Notes: generated by a model from the sequence alone, not told the origin. 64,000 bases of DNA from Cyanobacteria bacterium CYA (GCA_008363215.1 RHKP01000007.1:113713-177712), one strand, 5' to 3'. Shown: positions 5,689-64,000, counted from the first letter of the stretch. Translations and numbers: made by a program.

Positions 5689-6732
5689 ATGGTCAAGTAC
5701 ATCGGGTCCAAGCGGGTGCTGGTGCCGCGGATTGTGGAGATCGTGCGGTCGCTCGACGGCGTGCGGACCGTGTTCGACGCCTTCAGCGGGACGTCGCGCG
5801 TGGGGCACGCGCTCAAGCGTGCCGGGTACCGGGTGATCGCCAACGACCTGCTGAGTTTCGCGCACACCCTGGCAACCTGCTACGTGCAGGCCGACCGCGA
5901 GCGGGTGGAGCGCGACACCGAGCGGGTGATCGGTGAACTGAACGCCCTGCCCGGGCGGGCGGGGTACGTGACCGAGGTGTTCTGCAAGCAGTCGCGGTTC
6001 TTTCAGCCGCAGAATGGCGAGCGGATCGACGCCATGCGCGACCGGATCGAGCAGTTGGACCTGCCGCACGAGGTGCGCGCGGTGGCCCTGACCAGCCTGC
6101 TGGAGGCGGCCGACCGCGTCGATTCGACGACGGGCGTGCAGATGGCGTATGTGAAGCAGTGGGCGCCGCGGTCGTTCAACCCGATCGAGTTGCGGATGCC
6201 CGAAGTCTTGCCGCGGGCCGGGGCAGGCGCGGGGCAGGCGCTGATGTTCGACGCACGCGAGGCGGCGCGGCGCGTGCGCGCCGATCTGGCCTACCTCGAC
6301 CCTCCTTATAACCAGCACAGTTACCTGGGCAACTACCACCTGTGGGAGACCATCACGCGGTGGGACAGGCCCGAGCACTACGGCGTGGCCTGCAAGAGGG
6401 TGGATTGTCGGCAGCGCCGCAGTGATTTCAACTCCAAGGTACGGGCAGAAGCGGCGCTGCAGAGCGTGATCGACGCGATCGACGCACGCTGGATGCTGGT
6501 GTCATTCAACGATGAAGGCTACATCGCGCGCGGGCAAATGGAGGAGTTGCTCGGCAAGCGCGGGCGCGTGCGCACCGTCGAGTGCGCGTACAAACGATAC
6601 GTGGGCGCAAAGATCGGGATTCACAACCCGCAGGGCACGAAGGTGGGCACGGTGGGGCGATTGGAAAACACGGAGTTCCTGTTCCTCGTGGGCCCGATGA
6701 CGCGGGCGCAACAGATGGCCGTGGTGGCGTGA
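5689..6732 (+). CDS. D12-class N6-adenine DNA methyltransferase (Dam-like), no adjacent endonuclease
   Basis: KYIGSKR at the N-terminus, DAFSGTSRVG (FxGxG AdoMet motif) and LAYLDPPYN (DPPY catalytic motif). Confidence 0.9.
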   Translation: MVKYIGSKRVLVPRIVEIVRSLDGVRTVFDAFSGTSRVGHALKRAGYRVIANDLLSFAHTLATCYVQADRERVERDTERVIGELNALPGRAGYVTEVFCKQSRFFQPQNGERIDAMRDRIEQLDLPHEVRAVALTSLLEAADRVDSTTGVQMAYVKQWAPRSFNPIELRMPEVLPRAGAGAGQALMFDAREAARRVRADLAYLDPPYNQHSYLGNYHLWETITRWDRPEHYGVACKRVDCRQRRSDFNSKVRAEAALQSVIDAIDARWMLVSFNDEGYIARGQMEELLGKRGRVRTVECAYKRYVGAKIGIHNPQGTKVGTVGRLENTEFLFLVGPMTRAQQMAVVA

Positions 6733-7029
6733 GCGCCCGCAACACGTGCCGACAACACGCGCCGGCAACAGGTGCCGCCACACTTGGCTCTGCAAGGTTG
6801 CTGCTTCAGTTGGAAGCCGGCCGCCCGGCTCTACGGGCAGCCCGCGGAGAACCGCGCCAGATAAATCTGTACGTCGAAAAAGTTGAAAGCGGCACCGGCG
6901 AGCAAGCCGACGGAATGCAGCGATCTCATGGCAACTCCCCTTCGTCACCCCACGAGAAAAACCCATGCGAACGCATTTCAGGTCACGGCCGAAGAGCCGG
7001 AATTCGAATGGTGGGAACTGCAGGCGGGG

Positions 7030-16196: not shown

Positions 16197-16343
16197 ATGG
16201 GAGAGTGTACCCGGGGGCGCAGGTGTTCTAGCATGGGTGCTCCCGCGTCGGTTGACGGCCGGGCCCGGTGCACGGGTTGTGCCGTGAACCTGGTCAGGGC
16301 TTGACCGCAGCAGCCATAAGCGGACATGGCCCGGTGCCGCCGG

Positions 16344-16364
16344 TGTCCTGGCCGTCAACCGCGC
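16344..16364 (+). repeat. Left copy of an exact 21-bp direct repeat, TGTCCTGGCCGTCAACCGCGC
   Basis: Identical to 19202-19222. It lies 49 nt upstream of the 16413 start codon. Confidence 0.9.
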
Positions 16365-28722: not shown

Positions 28723-28975
28723 TCTCTCGACTTGCCGCCCTCCTGCCGCTCTCCGCCGCCCTCCGCCGCCCCGTGGCGCCGGCTGCTCCCACGCCCCCCA
28801 ACGCGGCAAGGACGCGCCCGCCACGTCCCCAAACGCCGAGGCAGGCGCCGTGGCGCACCCGGTCGGCCTGCCCATACAGGTGTCATTCGAGGCGTCGCGC
28901 CGGCTGCCCGTTCGGAGTCAAAGCGTCTGGCCACTGTGCATCTCTGCCCGCCGCCGGCCCCTACACTTCTCCGAT

Positions 28976-29057
28976 CGCGCGGGGCGTCGCCACAGAAATG
29001 GCGGCTGAGATGGCACCCGTCGAACCTGATCCGGATCACACCGGCGGAGGGAACGCG
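28976..29057 (+). promoter_or_regulatory. TPP (THI-box) riboswitch aptamer upstream of thiC
   Basis: CGCG-GGGGCGUCGCC...GGCGGCUGAGAUGGCACCC...GAACCUGAUCCGGAUCACACCGGCGGAGGGAA-CGCG contains the invariant CUGAGA and ACCUGAUC(U/C)GGAU.A..CC.GCG.AGGGA blocks. Downstream, GGAGGG/CCCTCC pairing could mask the thiC SD. Confidence 0.85.
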
Positions 29058-29101
29058 GTCACCGGGAATCCCGGCCCTCCGCCACATACGCGGAGAATCT
29101 C

Positions 29102-56107: not shown

Positions 56108-57604
56108 TCAGTGCAGATAGTTCACGATGCTGGTCTGGTACCCGCGTTCCAGGTTGATCACCATGTAGCGCAGTGCGTCGACCGCGTGGTCCGACCCGTC
56201 CTTGACCGGTGTGAGTGTCTCGGGGTTTTCGGCCGGGTATCGGTACTTTTCGAGCGATTCGATCAGTTGCGCGCAGCGTTCGTGGATGTACAGACTCGGC
56301 TCACCGGCGGCCGGTTTGAGGCGGGCGCGGATGAGGCTGAGTCCTTCGACCACGCCCATGCGTCGCGCCCGGCATCGAAGGCCGGTCCTGAGGAGCGCCT
56401 GCACGTCGCTGATGCCGGTCTGGTTGCTGCGACTTCTTCCCGCCGGGTCGACGCCGATCCACTCGGGAACGGGCCAGCGGGCTTCGAGGACCGCGCGGGC
56501 GTGCTCGCCGACGATGATGCCGGAGGCGATTCGTTCGTCGACGACGAAGATGCGCCCGTCAGGATCAACCCGGGCCCACAGCACGACGGTCGGCGCGCGG
56601 ATGCCGAAGTCCATTCCGCCGATCCAGCCCGAGCCGTGCTGCTCGGGCGGGAGTCGGCTGACCACGTGCATGTCGCGGTTGAACTCGGGCAGCACGCAAT
56701 CGCCGCGGCGGGGGCGCGTGCAGAGCATCTCGGAGTCCCAGGTTGCCTGGCTGACGCGCTGCTGCTGGCGCAGCGCGTCGTGAACCTCGACGTGTCCGGG
56801 CGGGGCGCCCTGCGCGTCGCGCTGCTTGGCGCGCCCCTGGCAGGCGGAGAAGAGCGGACAGGCCGGCTGCCCGCTTTCATCGCGACACTGGTTTGCATCG
56901 CCGCACACGCCCAGCACGTCGATGACACCCCACTTGAAGAGGGCGCGCTTCTGCTCGCGCGCCTCGGCCACGAGGCGATACATCAGCCCGTAGGGGATGT
57001 GCATCGTTGAGAGACACTCGATCGAGCCTGAGACCAGGATTCCGCCGCAGTCCTTGCTGCGCGTCGTGAGTTGGGCGGCCTCCCACACTTCGGGGTCGAA
57101 CAACTCGACCTCGTCGCAGCGGAGTTTCTGCACGCGCGTGCCGCGCACGGAAGTCTGAGACTGGGCGAGCAGTTCAACGGATGAGCCGCTGAGAAGGCGC
57201 AGGCGCTTCTCGGTGATCCTGCCCTCGACCAGTTCGGCAAACTGCGGGCGCGCGAAGATGGCGCGCAGGTGGTGGTGCATGCGTTTGGCCTGCTCGAGCG
57301 AGCCGCCGAGAATGCGGACCTCGATGCCCGGCTTGAAGACCAGGTCGAGAGCAGTCGCGACGGCTGCCAGGAAAGTCTTGCCGCCGCCACGGTTGGCCCA
57401 CACCACGCAGTCGAGCGCCCGCGTCGGGTCGATCTCGAAGAACGCGTGGCACAGATAGTCGAAGGGTGCGGCGTGCCCCAGCATGATCGGAGTGCGCGGG
57501 ACCACCAGGCCAAGGTGCACGCGCAGCCACTCGTGCAACTCGTCGAACGTCCGCGGCATGGTCGAGAACTCCATCGTCGTGTGTGCGTTGCCCGTGTCTT
57601 CCAT
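56108..57604 (-). CDS. Phage terminase large subunit-like ATPase/nuclease
   Basis: ATG at 57604 follows GGGGGAG. WANRGGGKTFLAAV (Walker A) and LRCDEVELF (Walker B). The C-terminal RNaseH-like nuclease has GMDFGIRAP..., VGVDPAG... and SDHAVDALRYMV. Confidence 0.88.
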   Translation of the reverse strand: MEDTGNAHTTMEFSTMPRTFDELHEWLRVHLGLVVPRTPIMLGHAAPFDYLCHAFFEIDPTRALDCVVWANRGGGKTFLAAVATALDLVFKPGIEVRILGGSLEQAKRMHHHLRAIFARPQFAELVEGRITEKRLRLLSGSSVELLAQSQTSVRGTRVQKLRCDEVELFDPEVWEAAQLTTRSKDCGGILVSGSIECLSTMHIPYGLMYRLVAEAREQKRALFKWGVIDVLGVCGDANQCRDESGQPACPLFSACQGRAKQRDAQGAPPGHVEVHDALRQQQRVSQATWDSEMLCTRPRRGDCVLPEFNRDMHVVSRLPPEQHGSGWIGGMDFGIRAPTVVLWARVDPDGRIFVVDERIASGIIVGEHARAVLEARWPVPEWIGVDPAGRSRSNQTGISDVQALLRTGLRCRARRMGVVEGLSLIRARLKPAAGEPSLYIHERCAQLIESLEKYRYPAENPETLTPVKDGSDHAVDALRYMVINLERGYQTSIVNYLH

Positions 57605-57617
57605 CGGCTCCCCCGTA

Positions 57618-57998
57618 TCAGTCCTGTTCGATCCCCAGCGCCCGCAAGAGCGCATCGACCCGGCGCGCGTGATGCCGCTGCAGCGCCTTGAGCACGGCCT
57701 GGCGCTGCCCGGCGTTGAGAAAGAACGTCAGCGCGTGCGGAAGTTGCTCCGGCCGAGTCGGCGCTGCGCACTCGGTGAGCGGCGGAGGCTCGCCCGTGCC
57801 TGCAGCCGCGGGCACTCTGCGGTCGCAACCCTCAGTCCTGCTCGGGCCTGACCTGGCGCCGGCGTGCTGCGAGTTGCCTCGCCTGCGTTTCGGGCTCGTG
57901 GTCGCGTCATTCTTCGTGCTTCCGAGGCTTCGTGCCTTCGCACCTTTGTCCTCGTCTCCCGGTCTTTTCGTCTCCCCGGTTCCTTTATCTGACCTCAT
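57618..57998 (-). CDS. Small protein: low-complexity basic N-half and helical C-half (small-terminase or DNA-binding candidate)
   Basis: It ends 13 nt before the terminase start and its start overlaps the upstream stop. Only the last ~45 aa (QLPHALTFFLNAGQRQAVLKALQRHHARRVDALLRALGIEQD) look like a folded domain. The N-half is encoded by repeat copy C. Confidence 0.4.
   Translation of the reverse strand: MRSDKGTGETKRPGDEDKGAKARSLGSTKNDATTSPKRRRGNSQHAGARSGPSRTEGCDRRVPAAAGTGEPPPLTECAAPTRPEQLPHALTFFLNAGQRQAVLKALQRHHARRVDALLRALGIEQD
57874..57985 (+). repeat. Copy C of the dispersed TTCG-rich repeat family (core plus CTTCGT-type tail)
   Basis: TTGCCTCGCCTGCGTTTCGGGCTCGTGGTCGCGTCATTCTTCGTGCTTCCGAGGCTTCGTGCCTTCGC...CTCGTCTCCCGGTCTTTTCGTCTCCCC. 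It lies antisense within the 57618..57998 ORF. Confidence 0.7.
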
Positions 57999-59370
57999 CC
58001 GGTTCCCCCTTGCGTCGGTTCGACGCCGTGCTCGGGGGGAACACGTGTGCATAGGCCATCGGTGTGACGCACAGGCGTGCGCCGGCCAGTCGTGCGCGTT
58101 CGTCTGGTTGGGCGTTCTGCAGGTGTCGACAGCGGGACCAGCGTTCGAGTTCGCGTGCCAGGAGGGGCCGGCGCAGCAGGTCGGCTGCGCGGTCCGCGTC
58201 GGCGAGCATCCATGCCTCGTGCCCTTCGCTTTCCAGCGCATCGGCGAGGCGCGCGTCGGCGGGATGACGCGGAAGGCGATAGCCCGTCATCCCGGCGCGC
58301 TCGAAGAGCGGGCAGATCGAGCCCATCGCGGCGACGGCCTCGGTGGCGGGCGTCTGCGGATCGCGCAGGTACTTGTCGACCAGTCGCCGCGCCACACCTC
58401 GGCCGCGATAGCGCGGATCGACGATCACGCGGGAGATGCAGCGGACTTCGGCGTTGAGCCGTGCGGAGGCGGCGCGGCGAGAGCAGGCGGAATAGCGCCC
58501 GGGCCAGGCCTGCGCTCGCCACACGCCGTTGAGCGTCGGCATGGAGATTACGAGCACGCCGGCGAGTTGGTCGTGCAACTCATCGACAGCGCGCAGGTAT
58601 CCGACGCGCGTGGCGGGCGGTCCGGCGAGGTAGTGGTGGTCGATCAGACGCTCCAGGTCGCGCTTCGAGCCGGGCTCGATGATGATCGGATCGGGCGCCG
58701 GCGAGGTCGGCCCGCACGGTCGCCACGAGCCGAGTGCATCGAACTGCAGATGCAGATCGGGCGCCAGGCGCCGCGCGAGATCATGGTGGGCCGTGGCGAC
58801 GACGACGCGCACGCGAGTCGCGCGGGCGGCGCGGGCGAAGGTGTGGGCGACGCCCTCGGCCGTCACACGGTCAAGCACCGAGCAGAACTCGTCGATGAGG
58901 AGCCAGTCGGCGCCGACGCGCTCGGCGCGCCAGAAACCTGCGGCCAGCAGAGCGCGGTGACGCTGACCTTCCGACAGTTCGCCCAGGCGGCGGGCCAGCA
59001 GGGCCGGTTCAGCCAGCCCGAAGCGGGCGAGGTGGGCCATCACGCGCTCAGGCGGCAGGTCGTGCCCGAGAATGTCGATAAGCAGGGGGTCGGTGCGCGG
59101 CGATTCGGAGTGCGAGACGATGACCACCCGCGAGCGACGGCGCAGATGTTCGGTCAGCGCGTGCAGCGTGCGCGACTTGCCGCACCCGCTCGGGCCGGTG
59201 AGCAGGGCGATCTGGCCGGCGAGCAGTGCAGTGCGCACGTGTGCGGCCGGTTCGCGCCAGTCGGCGAGCGGCGCCGCCCCGGCGCGCAGGTGCAGCCCGA
59301 AGGGCGCACAGGCTTCGATCTGTCGCGACGTCGGTCGATCGGTCGTGAAGATGACTTTGGGCGAAGACAT
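57985..59370 (-). CDS. ABC-type ATPase fused to a GNAT-like acetyltransferase domain (COG2401-like architecture)
   Basis: ATG at 59370. GPSGCGKSR (Walker A), LSEGQRHRALLA (signature-like) and WLLIDEF (Walker B). The C-terminal ISRVIVDPRYRGRGVARRLV resembles the GNAT acetyl-CoA motif A (Q/RxxGxG/A). Confidence 0.78.
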   Translation of the reverse strand: MSSPKVIFTTDRPTSRQIEACAPFGLHLRAGAAPLADWREPAAHVRTALLAGQIALLTGPSGCGKSRTLHALTEHLRRRSRVVIVSHSESPRTDPLLIDILGHDLPPERVMAHLARFGLAEPALLARRLGELSEGQRHRALLAAGFWRAERVGADWLLIDEFCSVLDRVTAEGVAHTFARAARATRVRVVVATAHHDLARRLAPDLHLQFDALGSWRPCGPTSPAPDPIIIEPGSKRDLERLIDHHYLAGPPATRVGYLRAVDELHDQLAGVLVISMPTLNGVWRAQAWPGRYSACSRRAASARLNAEVRCISRVIVDPRYRGRGVARRLVDKYLRDPQTPATEAVAAMGSICPLFERAGMTGYRLPRHPADARLADALESEGHEAWMLADADRAADLLRRPLLARELERWSRCRHLQNAQPDERARLAGARLCVTPMAYAHVFPPSTASNRRKGEPDEVR

Positions 59371-59491
59371 GGTGTGCTCGGCAGGCGAAAGGCGACAAGC
59401 AGAGAGTGACGAACGACAACCGGCGAACGGGCATGCGAACTGAACACGCCCGAACCGAGGGCGAGGGAGGAGAGAGGGAGGGGGGAATCGG

Positions 59492-60025
59492 TCAGGCGGT
59501 CCGGCGTTCGGGCCGGCGAGTCGCGGACGCTCGCTTCTCAGACTCATACAGCGCGTTGATTGCTTCGGCGTGACGTCGCACGGAGTAGAGGCTCATGCGC
59601 AGGTGGATCGAGGCGGCGCGCATGGAGAGCCCCTGCATGACCATCGCCGTGGCGACGCGACGACGTGAGGGCGACCAGGTTTCGAAGTTGCGCAGGACAA
59701 ATGAGAAGCGGTCGGAAAGCAAGCGCTCGGTGAGGCGTCGCAGTCGACGACTCAGGACGCGGGGGTCGGTCTTTGAAGCCTCGGCCAGGATCTTGATGGT
59801 GCGTCCTTCGCGGAAGTAGGACTCGACGAGCAGACGCTCGGCGGGGGGGAGGAAGCCGGCGCGGGCGACCACGCAGTCGGCCCGGTCGCGGCGGAAGCGT
59901 TTTCGCAGGTCCAAAGCCTGTTCGGGATCGGTCGGCCTCCACATCCCAGTCGAGTCTGTTCGGGTCAGATGCTGCACGGGACAGTCCTCCTTCGCGGTCT
60001 CACCCACGGATCTGTGGTTTTCCAC
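59492..60025 (-). CDS. DNA-binding protein with two sigma-70 region-4-like HTH units
   Basis: GTG at 60025 follows GGAAGGTGA. LPPAERLLVESYFREGRTIKILAEASKTDPRVLSRRLRRLTERL and SPSRRRVATAMVMQGLSMRAASIHLRMSLYSVRRHAEAI both fit region-4/LuxR-like HTHs. Confidence 0.65.
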   Translation of the reverse strand: MENHRSVGETAKEDCPVQHLTRTDSTGMWRPTDPEQALDLRKRFRRDRADCVVARAGFLPPAERLLVESYFREGRTIKILAEASKTDPRVLSRRLRRLTERLLSDRFSFVLRNFETWSPSRRRVATAMVMQGLSMRAASIHLRMSLYSVRRHAEAINALYESEKRASATRRPERRTA

Positions 60026-60049
60026 TCACCTTCCGCACGTCCTTGTGGA

Positions 60050-60065
60050 TTCGCTATTTAGCGAA
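60050..60065. promoter_or_regulatory. Candidate operator palindrome in the divergent control region
   Basis: TTCGCTA-TT-TAGCGAA is a perfect 7+7 inverted repeat 25 nt upstream of the 60025 start. A related half-site GGCGAAC is present near 60090. The 60026-60208 spacer is visibly AT-richer than its surroundings. Confidence 0.4.
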
Positions 60066-60208
60066 CTTACACGTAGGGTTCTACCAATCGGCGAACGGCA
60101 TTCAAGTACTTTCGGACCGAACTCCACGAACGCGCGCACAGCCGCATACGATTGGGTATTGTATGGCATATGATCGGTCGGAGCCACAGGCCGGACGGAG
60201 GTTCGATC

Positions 60209-61030
60209 ATGTCACGCGAGATTCGGCAATCCGATCCCTGGCCATTGGGGGCGCGGCTGCGTCAGGCCCGCGAGAACCGGGGGCTGAACCTGGAGGAACT
60301 GGGGCGAAGGGCGGGGTGCGCCAAGTCGTACCTGTCGGAGATCGAGACCGGTCGGCGCGGGCCACCCAGTGACGAGGTGCTGGATCGACTCGAGCGGGCG
60401 CTGGGCCTGGAGTCGGGCGATCTGGTGCGTCTTGCCGAGTGGGCGCGGACGCCTCGGGAGGTGCGGCGTGAGATGAGCGGGATGGCGTTGTCGTCGCAGG
60501 CGGCGCGGAAACTGGGTGAGATCCTGCGCGCGGGCGGGTCGCTCGACGATGCCTATCGATCCGGCGCGCTGCGCGGGCTGGTGAACGCGGTGTCGCCGAG
60601 CGAGGAGGGCGTGCTGGCGGCGCTCCCGATGGAGGTGCCGTTGATCAATCGCGTCAGCGCGGGGTATCCGGCTGATTTCACGGATCTGGGGTATCCGGCG
60701 CGCGTGGCCGACGAGTACGTGCGCTGCCCGGGGCTGAGCGATCCCGACGCGTTTGCGGCCAGGGTCATCGGCGACTCGATGATGCCCGAGTATCGGGAGG
60801 GGGACATCGTGGTGTTCAGCCCGGCGCGCGACGTGGAGAGTGGGGCCGACTGCTTTGTGCGTGTGGCGCCCGACCACGAGAGCACGTTCAAGCGGGTGTA
60901 TTTCGAAGGCGAGGAGGGTGCGGAGATGATCCGGTTGCAGCCGATCAACAACCGGTATGCGCCGCGCGTGCTGTCGCGCGAGGATGTGCTGGGGCTGTAC
61001 CGGGCGGTGAGCGTGACGAGAGTGATCTGA
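60209..61030 (+). CDS. CI/LexA-type repressor: XRE-family HTH plus S24 self-cleaving peptidase domain
   Basis: ATG at 60209 follows GGAGG. LGARLRQARENRGLNLEELGRRAGCAKSYLSEIETGRR is the HTH_XRE. VIGDSMMPEYREGDIVVF (Ser nucleophile) ... FKRV (Lys) is the S24 domain. Confidence 0.9.
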   Translation: MSREIRQSDPWPLGARLRQARENRGLNLEELGRRAGCAKSYLSEIETGRRGPPSDEVLDRLERALGLESGDLVRLAEWARTPREVRREMSGMALSSQAARKLGEILRAGGSLDDAYRSGALRGLVNAVSPSEEGVLAALPMEVPLINRVSAGYPADFTDLGYPARVADEYVRCPGLSDPDAFAARVIGDSMMPEYREGDIVVFSPARDVESGADCFVRVAPDHESTFKRVYFEGEEGAEMIRLQPINNRYAPRVLSREDVLGLYRAVSVTRVI

Positions 61031-63159: not shown

Positions 63160-64000
63160 ATGAACCCACGTCGATCACTTGTCGTCAGCGCGTTGTGCCT
63201 TGGAACATTGGCAGGCACGGCGATGGGCCAGTGGGTCACCGCCGGCGCCAATATCTACTACAACGGGGGCAACGTGGGCATCGGGACGGCAGCGCCGGCC
63301 TGGCCTCTCGAAGTCCGTGCCCAGGTCGATCGCGGCGTCGCGGTCACCAACTCCAAGGTGACCGGAACGACCTACGGCATCTTCAGCGTGGCTCGCAGCC
63401 CCTCGGCGCGCGGCGTGTATGGGCTGGCCAACAACGTCGATGGAACCGGCTACGGCGTGCTGGGCGTCAGCAACGGGAGCACGGGGCACGGAGTGCGCGG
63501 CATCGCGCAGGCCAACATCACCAACAAGGCCAGTTACGGCGTGTCGGGCAAGTCCGAATCGGTCAAGGGCGCCGGTGTATTCGGCGAAGCGACGCGCGGC
63601 GTCGGTGTGCTCGGGCAGGCCAACTCGGTTGCCAACGGGCCGGCCAACGGCTCGACCGCCATCGCCGGCGTCCGCGGCGTGATCAGTTCCACCACGCCCG
63701 GCTCGTTCTCGGCCGGCGTCTGGGGCATCAACAACGGCACGAGCACCAAGGGCGTCGGCGTCGCCGGATATCACGCCGGCTCGGGCTACGCCGTGTACGG
63801 GCTTGTCAACGGAAACAGCGGGTACGCGGGCTATTTCGAGGGCGGACAGAACTTCTTTGAGGGCGACGTGGGCATCGGCACCGACCAGCCCAGCGCCAAA
63901 CTCGACGTGCAGGGCGACGTGCGCATTCGCACCGGGGACCGCTTCTACTTCGGCGACGACACCGAGAACGACGACCCGACCTACTTCGAGCGCGATTTCA
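63160..64000 (+). CDS. Secreted Gly-rich repeat protein (tail-fibre-like repeats), 3' end outside the window
   Basis: ATG at 63160 follows GGAAGAGGAA. The signal is MNPRRSLVVSALCLGTLAGTAMGQ. GNVGIGTAAPAWPLEV ... GDVGIGTDQPSAKLDVQGDV and many YGV.G/.GV.G repeats follow. The frame is open to the window end and is not in the ORF track because it has no stop. Confidence 0.75.
   Translation, partial: MNPRRSLVVSALCLGTLAGTAMGQWVTAGANIYYNGGNVGIGTAAPAWPLEVRAQVDRGVAVTNSKVTGTTYGIFSVARSPSARGVYGLANNVDGTGYGVLGVSNGSTGHGVRGIAQANITNKASYGVSGKSESVKGAGVFGEATRGVGVLGQANSVANGPANGSTAIAGVRGVISSTTPGSFSAGVWGINNGTSTKGVGVAGYHAGSGYAVYGLVNGNSGYAGYFEGGQNFFEGDVGIGTDQPSAKLDVQGDVRIRTGDRFYFGDDTENDDPTYFERDF

Follow-up and report, generated by a model that had tools for sequence, protein, structure and literature searches.

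A phage-type terminase operon conserved across Phycisphaerales: a candidate packaging arm of a gene transfer agent-like element

Introduction

Why would a bacterial chromosome retain an intact phage-type large terminase (TerL) behind a repressor of the CI/LexA type at a locus devoid of virion genes? This question is raised by a block of five genes at positions 56108-61030 of a 64-kb stretch of DNA (hereafter the window). An initial annotation of the block considered a phage satellite or an island of the phage-inducible chromosomal island (PICI) type, a domesticated DNA-processing or defence module, and a recent large deletion. We analyzed the block and its relatives and found an intact and ancient cassette that is passed on vertically and kept by selection. 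The explanation that we favor, which on the sequence comparisons presented here has about an even chance of being right, is that it forms one arm, for regulation and packaging, of a dispersed element of ancient phage origin resembling gene transfer agents (GTAs), with head genes that are not linked to this arm.

Results

An intact terminase operon faces a repressor gene

The open reading frame (ORF) listing and family searches recovered every gene of the initial annotation in place: an XRE-S24 repressor gene on the plus strand is divergent from a minus-strand operon of four genes that encodes, in order, a protein with two sigma-70 region-4-like helix-turn-helix (HTH) domains, an ABC-ATPase/GNAT fusion, a small basic protein and a full-length TerL. 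Two gene bounds were corrected, the ABC/GNAT gene starting at 59370 rather than 59547 and the TerL gene at 57604 rather than 57655. The absence of virion and integrase genes also held. Neither the 64-kb window nor a further 7 kb of the source contig (WYBV01000011.1, GCA_011525725.1) contains a portal or capsid homologue, no integrase was found in the ORF listing or family searches of the locus, the listing contains no replication module, no tRNA gene lies near the module and no att-like direct repeats bracket it. The hallmarks of a prophage (integrase, att sites, sporadic strain-level spread) are all missing, and the distribution is order-wide.

The TerL gene (56108..57604, minus strand, 498 residues) probably starts with the ATG at 57604, which follows the sequence GGGGGAG. 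Its product matches phrog_2 (3e-18) and, just under the Pfam cut-off, Terminase_6C (1.6e-4). The ATPase domain carries a P-loop (72-RGGGKT-77), the Walker B and catalytic residues D164-E165 (LRCDE) and a C-motif (S199-T200), while the nuclease domain carries the acidic residues D332, D386 and D472/D476 (GMDFG, VDPAG, DHAVDALRY). A search of the Protein Data Bank (PDB) with the single sequence returned nothing useful and a profile search was needed; with the family profile, the nuclease motifs align to the D6E TerL nuclease structure. The P-loop, the DE and ST residues, the three acidic nuclease motifs and an insertion with four cysteines (C234, C240, C249, C255) are invariant in 45 homologues, so that the intactness claimed for this protein was borne out. 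The nearest viral TerLs share the cysteine insertion and a conserved N-terminal segment, both of which are therefore ancestral. The AlphaFold2 (AF2) model has a predicted local distance difference test (pLDDT) score of 81, and its top 34 Foldseek matches in the PDB are all phage TerLs (best 4e-13). In four IMG/VR loci (L303, L308, L309 and L323), TerL matches cover query residues 25-490 yet span about 1.9 kb of DNA, which suggests an insertion of about 500 nt, possibly an intein or intron, inside these genes.

The cassette is inherited vertically and maintained by selection

More than 3000 TerL homologues were found at 56-84% identity; they belong to Phycisphaerales/Planctomycetota where named, and many lie on Mb-scale contigs. 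A scan of one genome per species detected TerL relatives in 497 GTDB species, and synteny was examined in the best 80 of these, which are all Phycisphaerales/Planctomycetota and include Phycisphaera and Tepidisphaera metagenome-assembled genomes (MAGs) and several complete chromosomes. With 80 loci of a sister type described below, they make up a set of 160 related loci. The order of a minus-strand XRE-S24 gene followed by plus-strand genes for the HTH protein, ABC/GNAT, (small protein) and TerL is found in about 70 of the 80 loci and is kept wherever the flank suffices; absence from relatives, which the initial annotation had named among its refuting conditions, is therefore not observed. The flanks differ from locus to locus: the neighbors seen in the window, metG and an NHL-repeat gene, recur only in the closest relative, and the genes downstream of TerL in other species encode small membrane proteins and other cellular functions. 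The cassette lacks adjacent virion genes in essentially all 80 species examined, which refutes the proposed recent large deletion.

Ratios of non-synonymous to synonymous substitutions (dN/dS) were measured against the closest relative (L001), at a dS of about 0.5-0.7. They are 0.07 for the HTH protein, 0.14 for the repressor, 0.18 for TerL and 0.27 for ABC/GNAT, a housekeeping-like range (metG, the NHL gene, an epimerase gene and dut give 0.12-0.21), and 0.41 for the small protein. Pairwise identities of TerL follow those of MetRS (Mantel r=0.76, exceeded in 0 of 5000 permutations), and the GC content at third codon positions (GC3) of the cassette matches that of host genes. TerL has no close copy in IMG/VR (best 29% identity), and single-protein scans of this database with divergent TerL representatives found nothing. 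The initial annotation had judged that an intact TerL behind a self-cleaving repressor is not what ordinary prophage decay leaves, and the conservation and dN/dS values agree with it. Vertical inheritance together with selection across the clade, a defining property of GTAs, argues for a GTA-like packaging arm rather than prophage debris or a satellite.

Between 37 and 58 of the 80 Phycisphaerales loci (L028 5786-7015 and 11584-13307, and equivalents) have extra conserved neighbors that the lineage of the window lacks at this locus. In most Phycisphaerales, a gene beyond the repressor encodes an HTH protein resembling MerR/excisionase, which has a long acidic stretch and a transmembrane tail; TerL is followed by two small membrane proteins, an acidic peptide and a conserved protein with the motif ...EEGEMxxEQFLFLxAIxxFK...WTDVLEVxRLLGYRKT.

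The cassette resembles phage packaging regions

The cultured phages with the best TerL matches are SSU5-like, RHEph10-like, nickie/hairong and Stenotrophomonas phages. In these phages, genes for an ABC protein and a GNAT-like protein (phrog_886) lie 1-3 kb upstream of TerL, in the order ParB-like, (methyltransferase), ABC, GNAT-like, DNA-binding protein, TerL, portal, capsid. In Leptospira phage LE4 the order is ParB-like, ABC/GNAT fusion, three small ORFs, TerL, portal. Relatives of ABC(-GNAT) are encoded in 124 IMG/VR loci, and a recognisable TerL gene follows on the same strand, 0.5-4 kb downstream, in at least 15 of the 35 that have enough downstream sequence; in the closest relatives (31-34% identity) the distance is 535-786 nt. 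One IMG/VR locus (L127, 6248-8248) encodes a 666-residue ABC plus GNAT protein directly upstream of the small terminase (TerS), TerL and portal genes. Its N-terminus appears ParB-like by eye, with Pfam silent, and this probable fusion would link ParB, ABC and GNAT, in the Rosetta-stone sense, as proteins that cooperate in phage packaging regions.

The linkage between ABC/GNAT and TerL across phages and IMG/VR makes ABC/GNAT a recurrent, functionally uncharacterised companion of phage terminases. Judged by homology and gene order, this linkage is preserved in the Phycisphaerales cassette, which derives from a phage packaging region. The likeness to LE4, to the SSU5-like phage-plasmids, to Pseudomonas phage nickie, to Rhizobium RHEph10-like phages and to the IMG/VR blocks extends to homologous ABC, GNAT-like and TerL genes in the same order and on the same strand, with the fused form of ABC/GNAT also occurring in LE4 and L127. 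In contrast to these blocks, the window lacks ParB, a recognisable TerS and, downstream of TerL, any portal or capsid gene; it adds the double-HTH gene and the S24 repressor, and it is chromosomal and vertically inherited. Its TerL is only 23-29% identical to the TerLs of the LE4, SSU5, nickie and RHEph10 types.

A sister cassette is present in other Planctomycetota

An exhaustive HMMER search yielded 318 cluster representatives at E<=1e-30, a continuum of TerL sequences in which identity falls to about 34%; all of them keep the motifs, and one comes from a 'Planctomycetales bacterium' MAG. A metagenome scan then delineated a second tight TerL family, 57-62% identical to the Planctomycetales representative and about 40% identical to the TerL of the window, with a GC content of 0.42-0.64. 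The order in this sister clade is double-HTH, ABC, GNAT-like, ParB_N, TerS-like (phrog_2538) and TerL, with aspS downstream, and no portal gene follows TerL. The first gene is homologous to that of the HTH protein in the window (hhalign 98.6%). The core HTH-ABC-GNAT-TerL is common to both clades and hence predates Phycisphaerales. By this comparison, the features specific to Phycisphaerales are the S24 switch, the fusion of ABC and GNAT, the loss of ParB and the replacement of the TerS-like gene by the gene for the small protein, the two products not being homologous.

Cellular genes such as rpiB are sometimes inserted among the genes of the sister cassette, which has therefore been invaded by, or interleaved with, host genes and yet is conserved. 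In many sister loci the insertions are found mostly between the TerS-like gene and TerL; in L223, rpiB (6534-7004), a methyltransferase gene, a DHH phosphoesterase gene and a primosomal-like gene separate cassette genes.

Head genes lie near the cassette in two independent lineages

Cognate-looking head genes were found beside the cassette in two independent lineages. Firstly, in L064, a Phycisphaerales-type locus whose TerL is 56% identical to that of the window, head genes with host-like GC3 are located 2.4 kb beyond the XRE-S24 gene, in the order portal C-terminus, scaffold-like, major head protein (phrog_1328, 2e-75), three small ORFs, membrane protein, phosphofructokinase, XRE-S24, cassette. 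Secondly, in the sister loci L247 and L263, an SPP1-type portal gene (Pfam 1.4e-20, phrog_64 5e-30) lies 1.5 kb from the HTH gene and divergent from it, with a PfkB kinase gene between; a scaffold gene comes next, after which the sequence ends. The distance from cassette to portal in these three loci is 1.5-7 kb, with host genes in between. A further contig of the sister lineage (L292, IMGVR_UViG_3300031673_016560, 1-21152) carries two TerS-like genes, portal, scaffold and major capsid protein (MCP) genes and about 8 further ORFs, in a structural cluster that continues for about 7 kb and is flanked by radical-SAM-type cellular genes; a 614-residue protein of this cluster has no phage match.

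The portals of the two clades share about 51% identity and their MCPs about 59%; identities of the MCP do not exceed 33% with cultured phages or 38% with other IMG/VR contigs. By these identities, the head genes repeat the pattern of TerL, a tight family distant from viruses. Portal and MCP of the domesticated type are absent from the phages with the closest TerLs (36-41% identity), and the portal of the nearest viral TerL relative (L086), used as a query, found only viral-type contigs. IMG/VR lists as viral the contigs L290, L291 and L292, which carry the conserved portal-scaffold-MCP cluster of the Planctomycetota type and may represent chromosomal, GTA-like loci and not viruses.

The window, the other 79 Phycisphaerales loci and the other 78 sister loci yielded no homologue of a head gene, so that TerL is encoded away from portal and capsid genes in 157 of the 160 loci; head genes, if present, would normally lie more than 10 kb from the cassette. 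The initial suggestion of a domesticated module is upheld as to domestication, whereas its premise, a module working without virion genes, is probably wrong at the level of the genome in view of the head genes of L064 and L247/L263. Portal, scaffold and capsid genes near related cassettes argue for a GTA-like system split between loci rather than a capsid-free defence or repair device.

A conserved candidate switch lies at the operon start

The repressor gene (60209..61030, plus strand) encodes 273 residues with an N-terminal XRE-type HTH (Pfam HTH_31, 5e-17) and a Peptidase_S24 domain (3e-16), and matches phrog_4, 'transcriptional repressor' (2e-29). An Ala151-Gly152 cleavage site (VSAGYP), Ser190 (GDSM) and Lys228 (TFKRV) are present, and the three motifs are kept in 60 of 64 orthologues. 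With a DNA-binding domain, an S24 domain, an Ala-Gly site and a Ser/Lys dyad, the protein is by its motifs a repressor of the LexA/CI S24 type. The catalytic Ser/Lys and the Ala-Gly context are lost in L040, L043, L066 (Tepidisphaera-labelled) and L075 (P. mikurensis-labelled), all of which keep the cassette; this implies a different induction mechanism in these four lineages.

The divergent spacer (60026..60208) measures exactly the 183 bp annotated and is indeed richer in AT, with a GC content of 0.546 compared to 0.66 for the window. It contains a candidate operator, the perfect 16-bp palindrome TTCGCTATTTAGCGAA (60050..60065), located 25 bp upstream of the HTH gene start and unique in the window. 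The exact palindrome is common only to the window and its closest relative, and orthologous spacers carry variants of the type TTCACT-N4-AGTGAA. Since the exact palindrome was too narrow, a generalised motif, TTC[AG][CT]-N6-[AG][CT]GAA, was derived and scanned over 1.37 Mb of orthologous loci. It occurs 25 times, of which 19 were scored by script inside the intergenic DNA between the XRE and HTH genes (28 kb); two further sites (L064, L080) occupy the same place by coordinates, which brings to 21 of 25 those in the promoter region. About 8 occurrences overall and fewer than one in the spacers would be expected, as estimated by hand from base composition rather than by a tool, and elsewhere in the approximately 1.4 Mb of flanks the motif is not above chance. 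The candidate operator is thus conserved, and by its motifs the repressor is competent for self-cleavage. Neither a sigma-70 promoter nor an intrinsic terminator was found within the module.

Putative partner proteins encoded upstream of TerL

The HTH protein is the first product of the operon (59492..60025, minus strand; 177 residues from a GTG at 60025, with an alternative ATG at 59944) and has an isoelectric point (pI) of 11.6. Taken alone, the protein of the window gives only sub-threshold sigma matches, and a single-sequence search of the PDB was of no use. The double sigma-region-4-like fold that had been annotated emerges from profiles: 33 of 37 orthologues match Sigma70_r4_2 (best 1.8e-13) with two tandem copies, 12 match Phage_antitermQ, and the family profile retrieves sigma region 4 from the PDB.

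The ABC/GNAT protein (57985..59370, minus strand, 461 residues) has its start supported by an identical 461-residue database protein (P0121). As annotated, it is a fusion, with an ATPase at residues ~1-225 (Pfam ABC_tran), a GNAT domain at ~229-365 (Acetyltransf_1) and a helical tail, and it matches phrog_11143, phrog_293 and phrog_886. Walker A, an LSGGQ-like signature, Walker B-E, the H-loop and GNAT motif A (R-x-x-G) are invariant in 63 homologues. The AF2 model (pLDDT 92) retrieves from the PDB only folds of ABC nucleotide-binding domains (E ~4e-8) and no full-length analogue; the best predicted viral structure is a 366-residue ABC/GNAT protein of phage LE4 (E 4.5e-17). NCBIfam returned only generic ABC and LexA-like matches below cut-offs for the module proteins. 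The fusion is split again in some Phycisphaerales lineages: ABC and GNAT are separate ORFs in a subset that comprises L015, L016, L018-L020, L028, L029, L032, L033, L036 and others. In L028 (8582-9954) the two ORFs share 285 nt, an overlap that could stem from a frameshift or from an internal start.

The small basic protein (57618..57998, minus strand, 126 residues, pI 10.6) is encoded by a gene that overlaps the end of ABC/GNAT and leaves 13 nt to TerL. Its N-terminus is variable and its C-terminus carries a conserved motif of about 45 residues (LPxALTFFLTxxQRRAVLRxLR...R..ALLxALG) kept in at least 26 loci. The protein is lineage-restricted, being absent in the L028 lineage, and has no significant family or PDB match. 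A likeness to ribosomal protein S15 was discarded as not meaningful, the PDB resemblance being limited to a short helix-hairpin, and a ribbon-helix-helix fold guessed by eye was unconfirmed. A TerS role for either the HTH protein or the small protein is unsupported, with no significant similarity to phage TerS or ParB; the sole signal on that side is a weak match of 21% probability between one HTH and nickie gp153.

Discussion

A packaging arm with unlinked head genes, and its alternatives

In the GTA-like explanation, the repressor would bind the conserved palindrome at the start of the operon and keep it off, as the conservation of the operator suggests. Upon DNA damage, RecA would stimulate self-cleavage at the Ala-Gly site through the Ser/Lys dyad, and the derepressed operon would be expressed as part of an SOS response. 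The double-HTH protein may then serve as a transcription activator or a DNA-recognition factor, and the ABC/GNAT protein and the small, putatively DNA-binding protein would assist TerL in cutting DNA and pumping it into procapsids whose portal, scaffold and capsid proteins would be encoded at other genomic sites, by genes that are putative in the present genome.

Several observations weigh against this scheme. The cassette has head genes within 8-10 kb in just 3 of the 160 loci, and as L247 and L263 are close relatives these represent two independent cases; their co-location could be that of coincidental neighboring remnants. No head gene was found in the window or in its 83-kb source contig. 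Tail and lysis genes were not identified, the downstream ORFs of L292 having no phage matches. SOS control is not universal, as the sister clade has no S24 repressor adjacent and four lineages of the Phycisphaerales family are without the catalytic Ser/Lys. Finally, the roles given to the HTH protein, ABC/GNAT and the small protein are only inferred.

The strongest alternative is an exaptation that dispenses with capsids, in which an inducible ATP-dependent nuclease/translocase of the terminase type, with ABC/GNAT and HTH partners, would act in the processing or repair of damaged DNA, or as an abortive-infection or anti-phage device that cuts replicating phage DNA or competes for it. It would account for the absence of virion genes within 10 kb on either side in 157 of 160 loci and for a cassette that holds together while its neighbors change; the repressor HTH resembles regulators of the CapH type found in defence (PADLOC capH, 1e-11), and the search with the nearest viral portal revealed no relative domesticated along with the cassette. 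We nevertheless regard it as rather unlikely: all the motifs of a packaging motor, the P-loop Arg and the C-motif among them, are intact in TerL, the sister clade keeps a TerS-like gene, conserved portal, scaffold and MCP genes stand beside the cassette in two independent lineages, and defence genes are not usually conserved vertically across a whole order in the manner of housekeeping genes. PADLOC 2.0 made no defence-system assignment for the module, with no match for TerL, the HTH protein or the small protein, a generic weak match for the ATPase and the generic capH match for the repressor HTH. More doubtful still is a cellular exaptation of the whole viral terminase holoenzyme as an SOS-induced, ATP-driven DNA nuclease/translocase that needs no capsid and acts with the ABC-ATPase/GNAT, for which the head genes of the few relatives would be unrelated or vestigial; such an enzyme may function in chromosome processing, repair or anti-phage interference and be conserved like a housekeeping gene across Phycisphaerales.

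A satellite or PICI-like island would be mobile, derepressed by a helper phage or by the SOS response, and would package itself with its own terminase into helper capsids. Repressor-controlled packaging genes without virion genes would fit, as would the presence of related TerL types in real phages at 36-41% identity. This origin, put forward in the initial annotation, is nonetheless highly improbable: the cassette has no integrase, replication module, att repeats or tRNA, it is vertically inherited with host-like composition and housekeeping-level constraint, its spread is order-wide instead of patchy, and it was never captured in IMG/VR. As for a functionless prophage remnant or product of a recent deletion, with which phage-type relatives for all five genes and a block without virion genes would agree, it is effectively refuted by the conservation data, since every ORF is intact, dN/dS stays at 0.07-0.27, the architecture is common to about 70 of 80 species and to the sister clade, and the operator is conserved.

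Comparison with known systems

The element that we favor shares with GTAs (the RcGTA type of Alphaproteobacteria, BaGTA, VSH-1 and the Caulobacter GTA) a phage origin, vertical inheritance across a large clade, a TerL under strong purifying selection, and, as predicted here, host- or SOS-linked control; auxiliary loci can be dispersed in GTAs too. GTA activators of the GafA/GafYZ type are likewise HTH proteins. It differs from GTAs in that host genes or distances of more than 10 kb separate TerL from the portal and capsid genes, in that the packaging arm includes an ABC-ATPase/GNAT (and ParB and TerS in the sister clade), and in that a CI-like XRE-S24 repressor sits directly on this arm; tail and lysis genes are not identified here.

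Repressors of the lambda CI/LexA type have the same HTH and S24 domains, Ala-Gly site, Ser/Lys dyad and palindromic operator in a divergent promoter, whereas control here is predicted to bear on a four-gene packaging operon and not on a lytic cascade or an SOS regulon. SaPI, cf-PICI, P4 and PLE also place packaging functions under a repressor without a full set of virion genes. Unlike them, the cassette is without integrase, att sites and replication genes, is neither mobile nor patchy, and encodes TerL and not only TerS or capsid-remodelling genes.

Neither a GTA in Planctomycetota nor an element of this kind was found described in the literature searched. If the explanation is true, the cassette would represent the first domesticated phage system resembling GTAs to be described for the phylum, with an unusual architecture in which the terminase arm is split from the head genes, controlled by a direct CI/LexA-type switch and constantly accompanied by an ABC-ATPase/GNAT. 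It would bear on horizontal gene transfer or on the DNA-damage response in a phylum with atypical cell biology. As ABC/GNAT recurs beside TerL in many unrelated phages, the cassette offers a tractable, conserved context in which to study its function and that of ParB. TerL genes of this type in Planctomycetota MAGs should not count as a prophage or viral signal, and related head clusters are currently classed as viral in IMG/VR.

Surroundings of the cassette in the window

The module is bounded, as had been noted, by metG on one side and by a Tat-exported propeller protein on the other, an NHL-repeat protein with an SRRHF twin-arginine motif. Further out lie genes for polysaccharide synthesis, a dUTPase, a rhomboid protein and a citrate synthase. 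Directly after metG, a gene that begins at 63160 and runs off the window end at 64000 (L207 12031-13398) encodes a glycine-rich, fibre-like protein with a signal peptide and a C-terminal Peptidase_S74 domain, the intramolecular chaperone domain of phage tail fibres. It was considered as a structural remnant of the module and rejected, being syntenic only in the closest relative, L001.

The MAG with the identical ABC/GNAT protein is named 'Leptolyngbya sp. PLA3' at NCBI; its gene content and homologues are all those of Phycisphaerales/Planctomycetota, and the label is probably a taxonomic misassignment of the bin. At the Rfam gathering threshold, the window also contains a thiamine pyrophosphate (TPP) riboswitch at 28970-29070 (plus strand, 63.5 bits) and a bacterial small signal recognition particle (SRP) RNA at 16257-16356 (plus strand, 57.4 bits).

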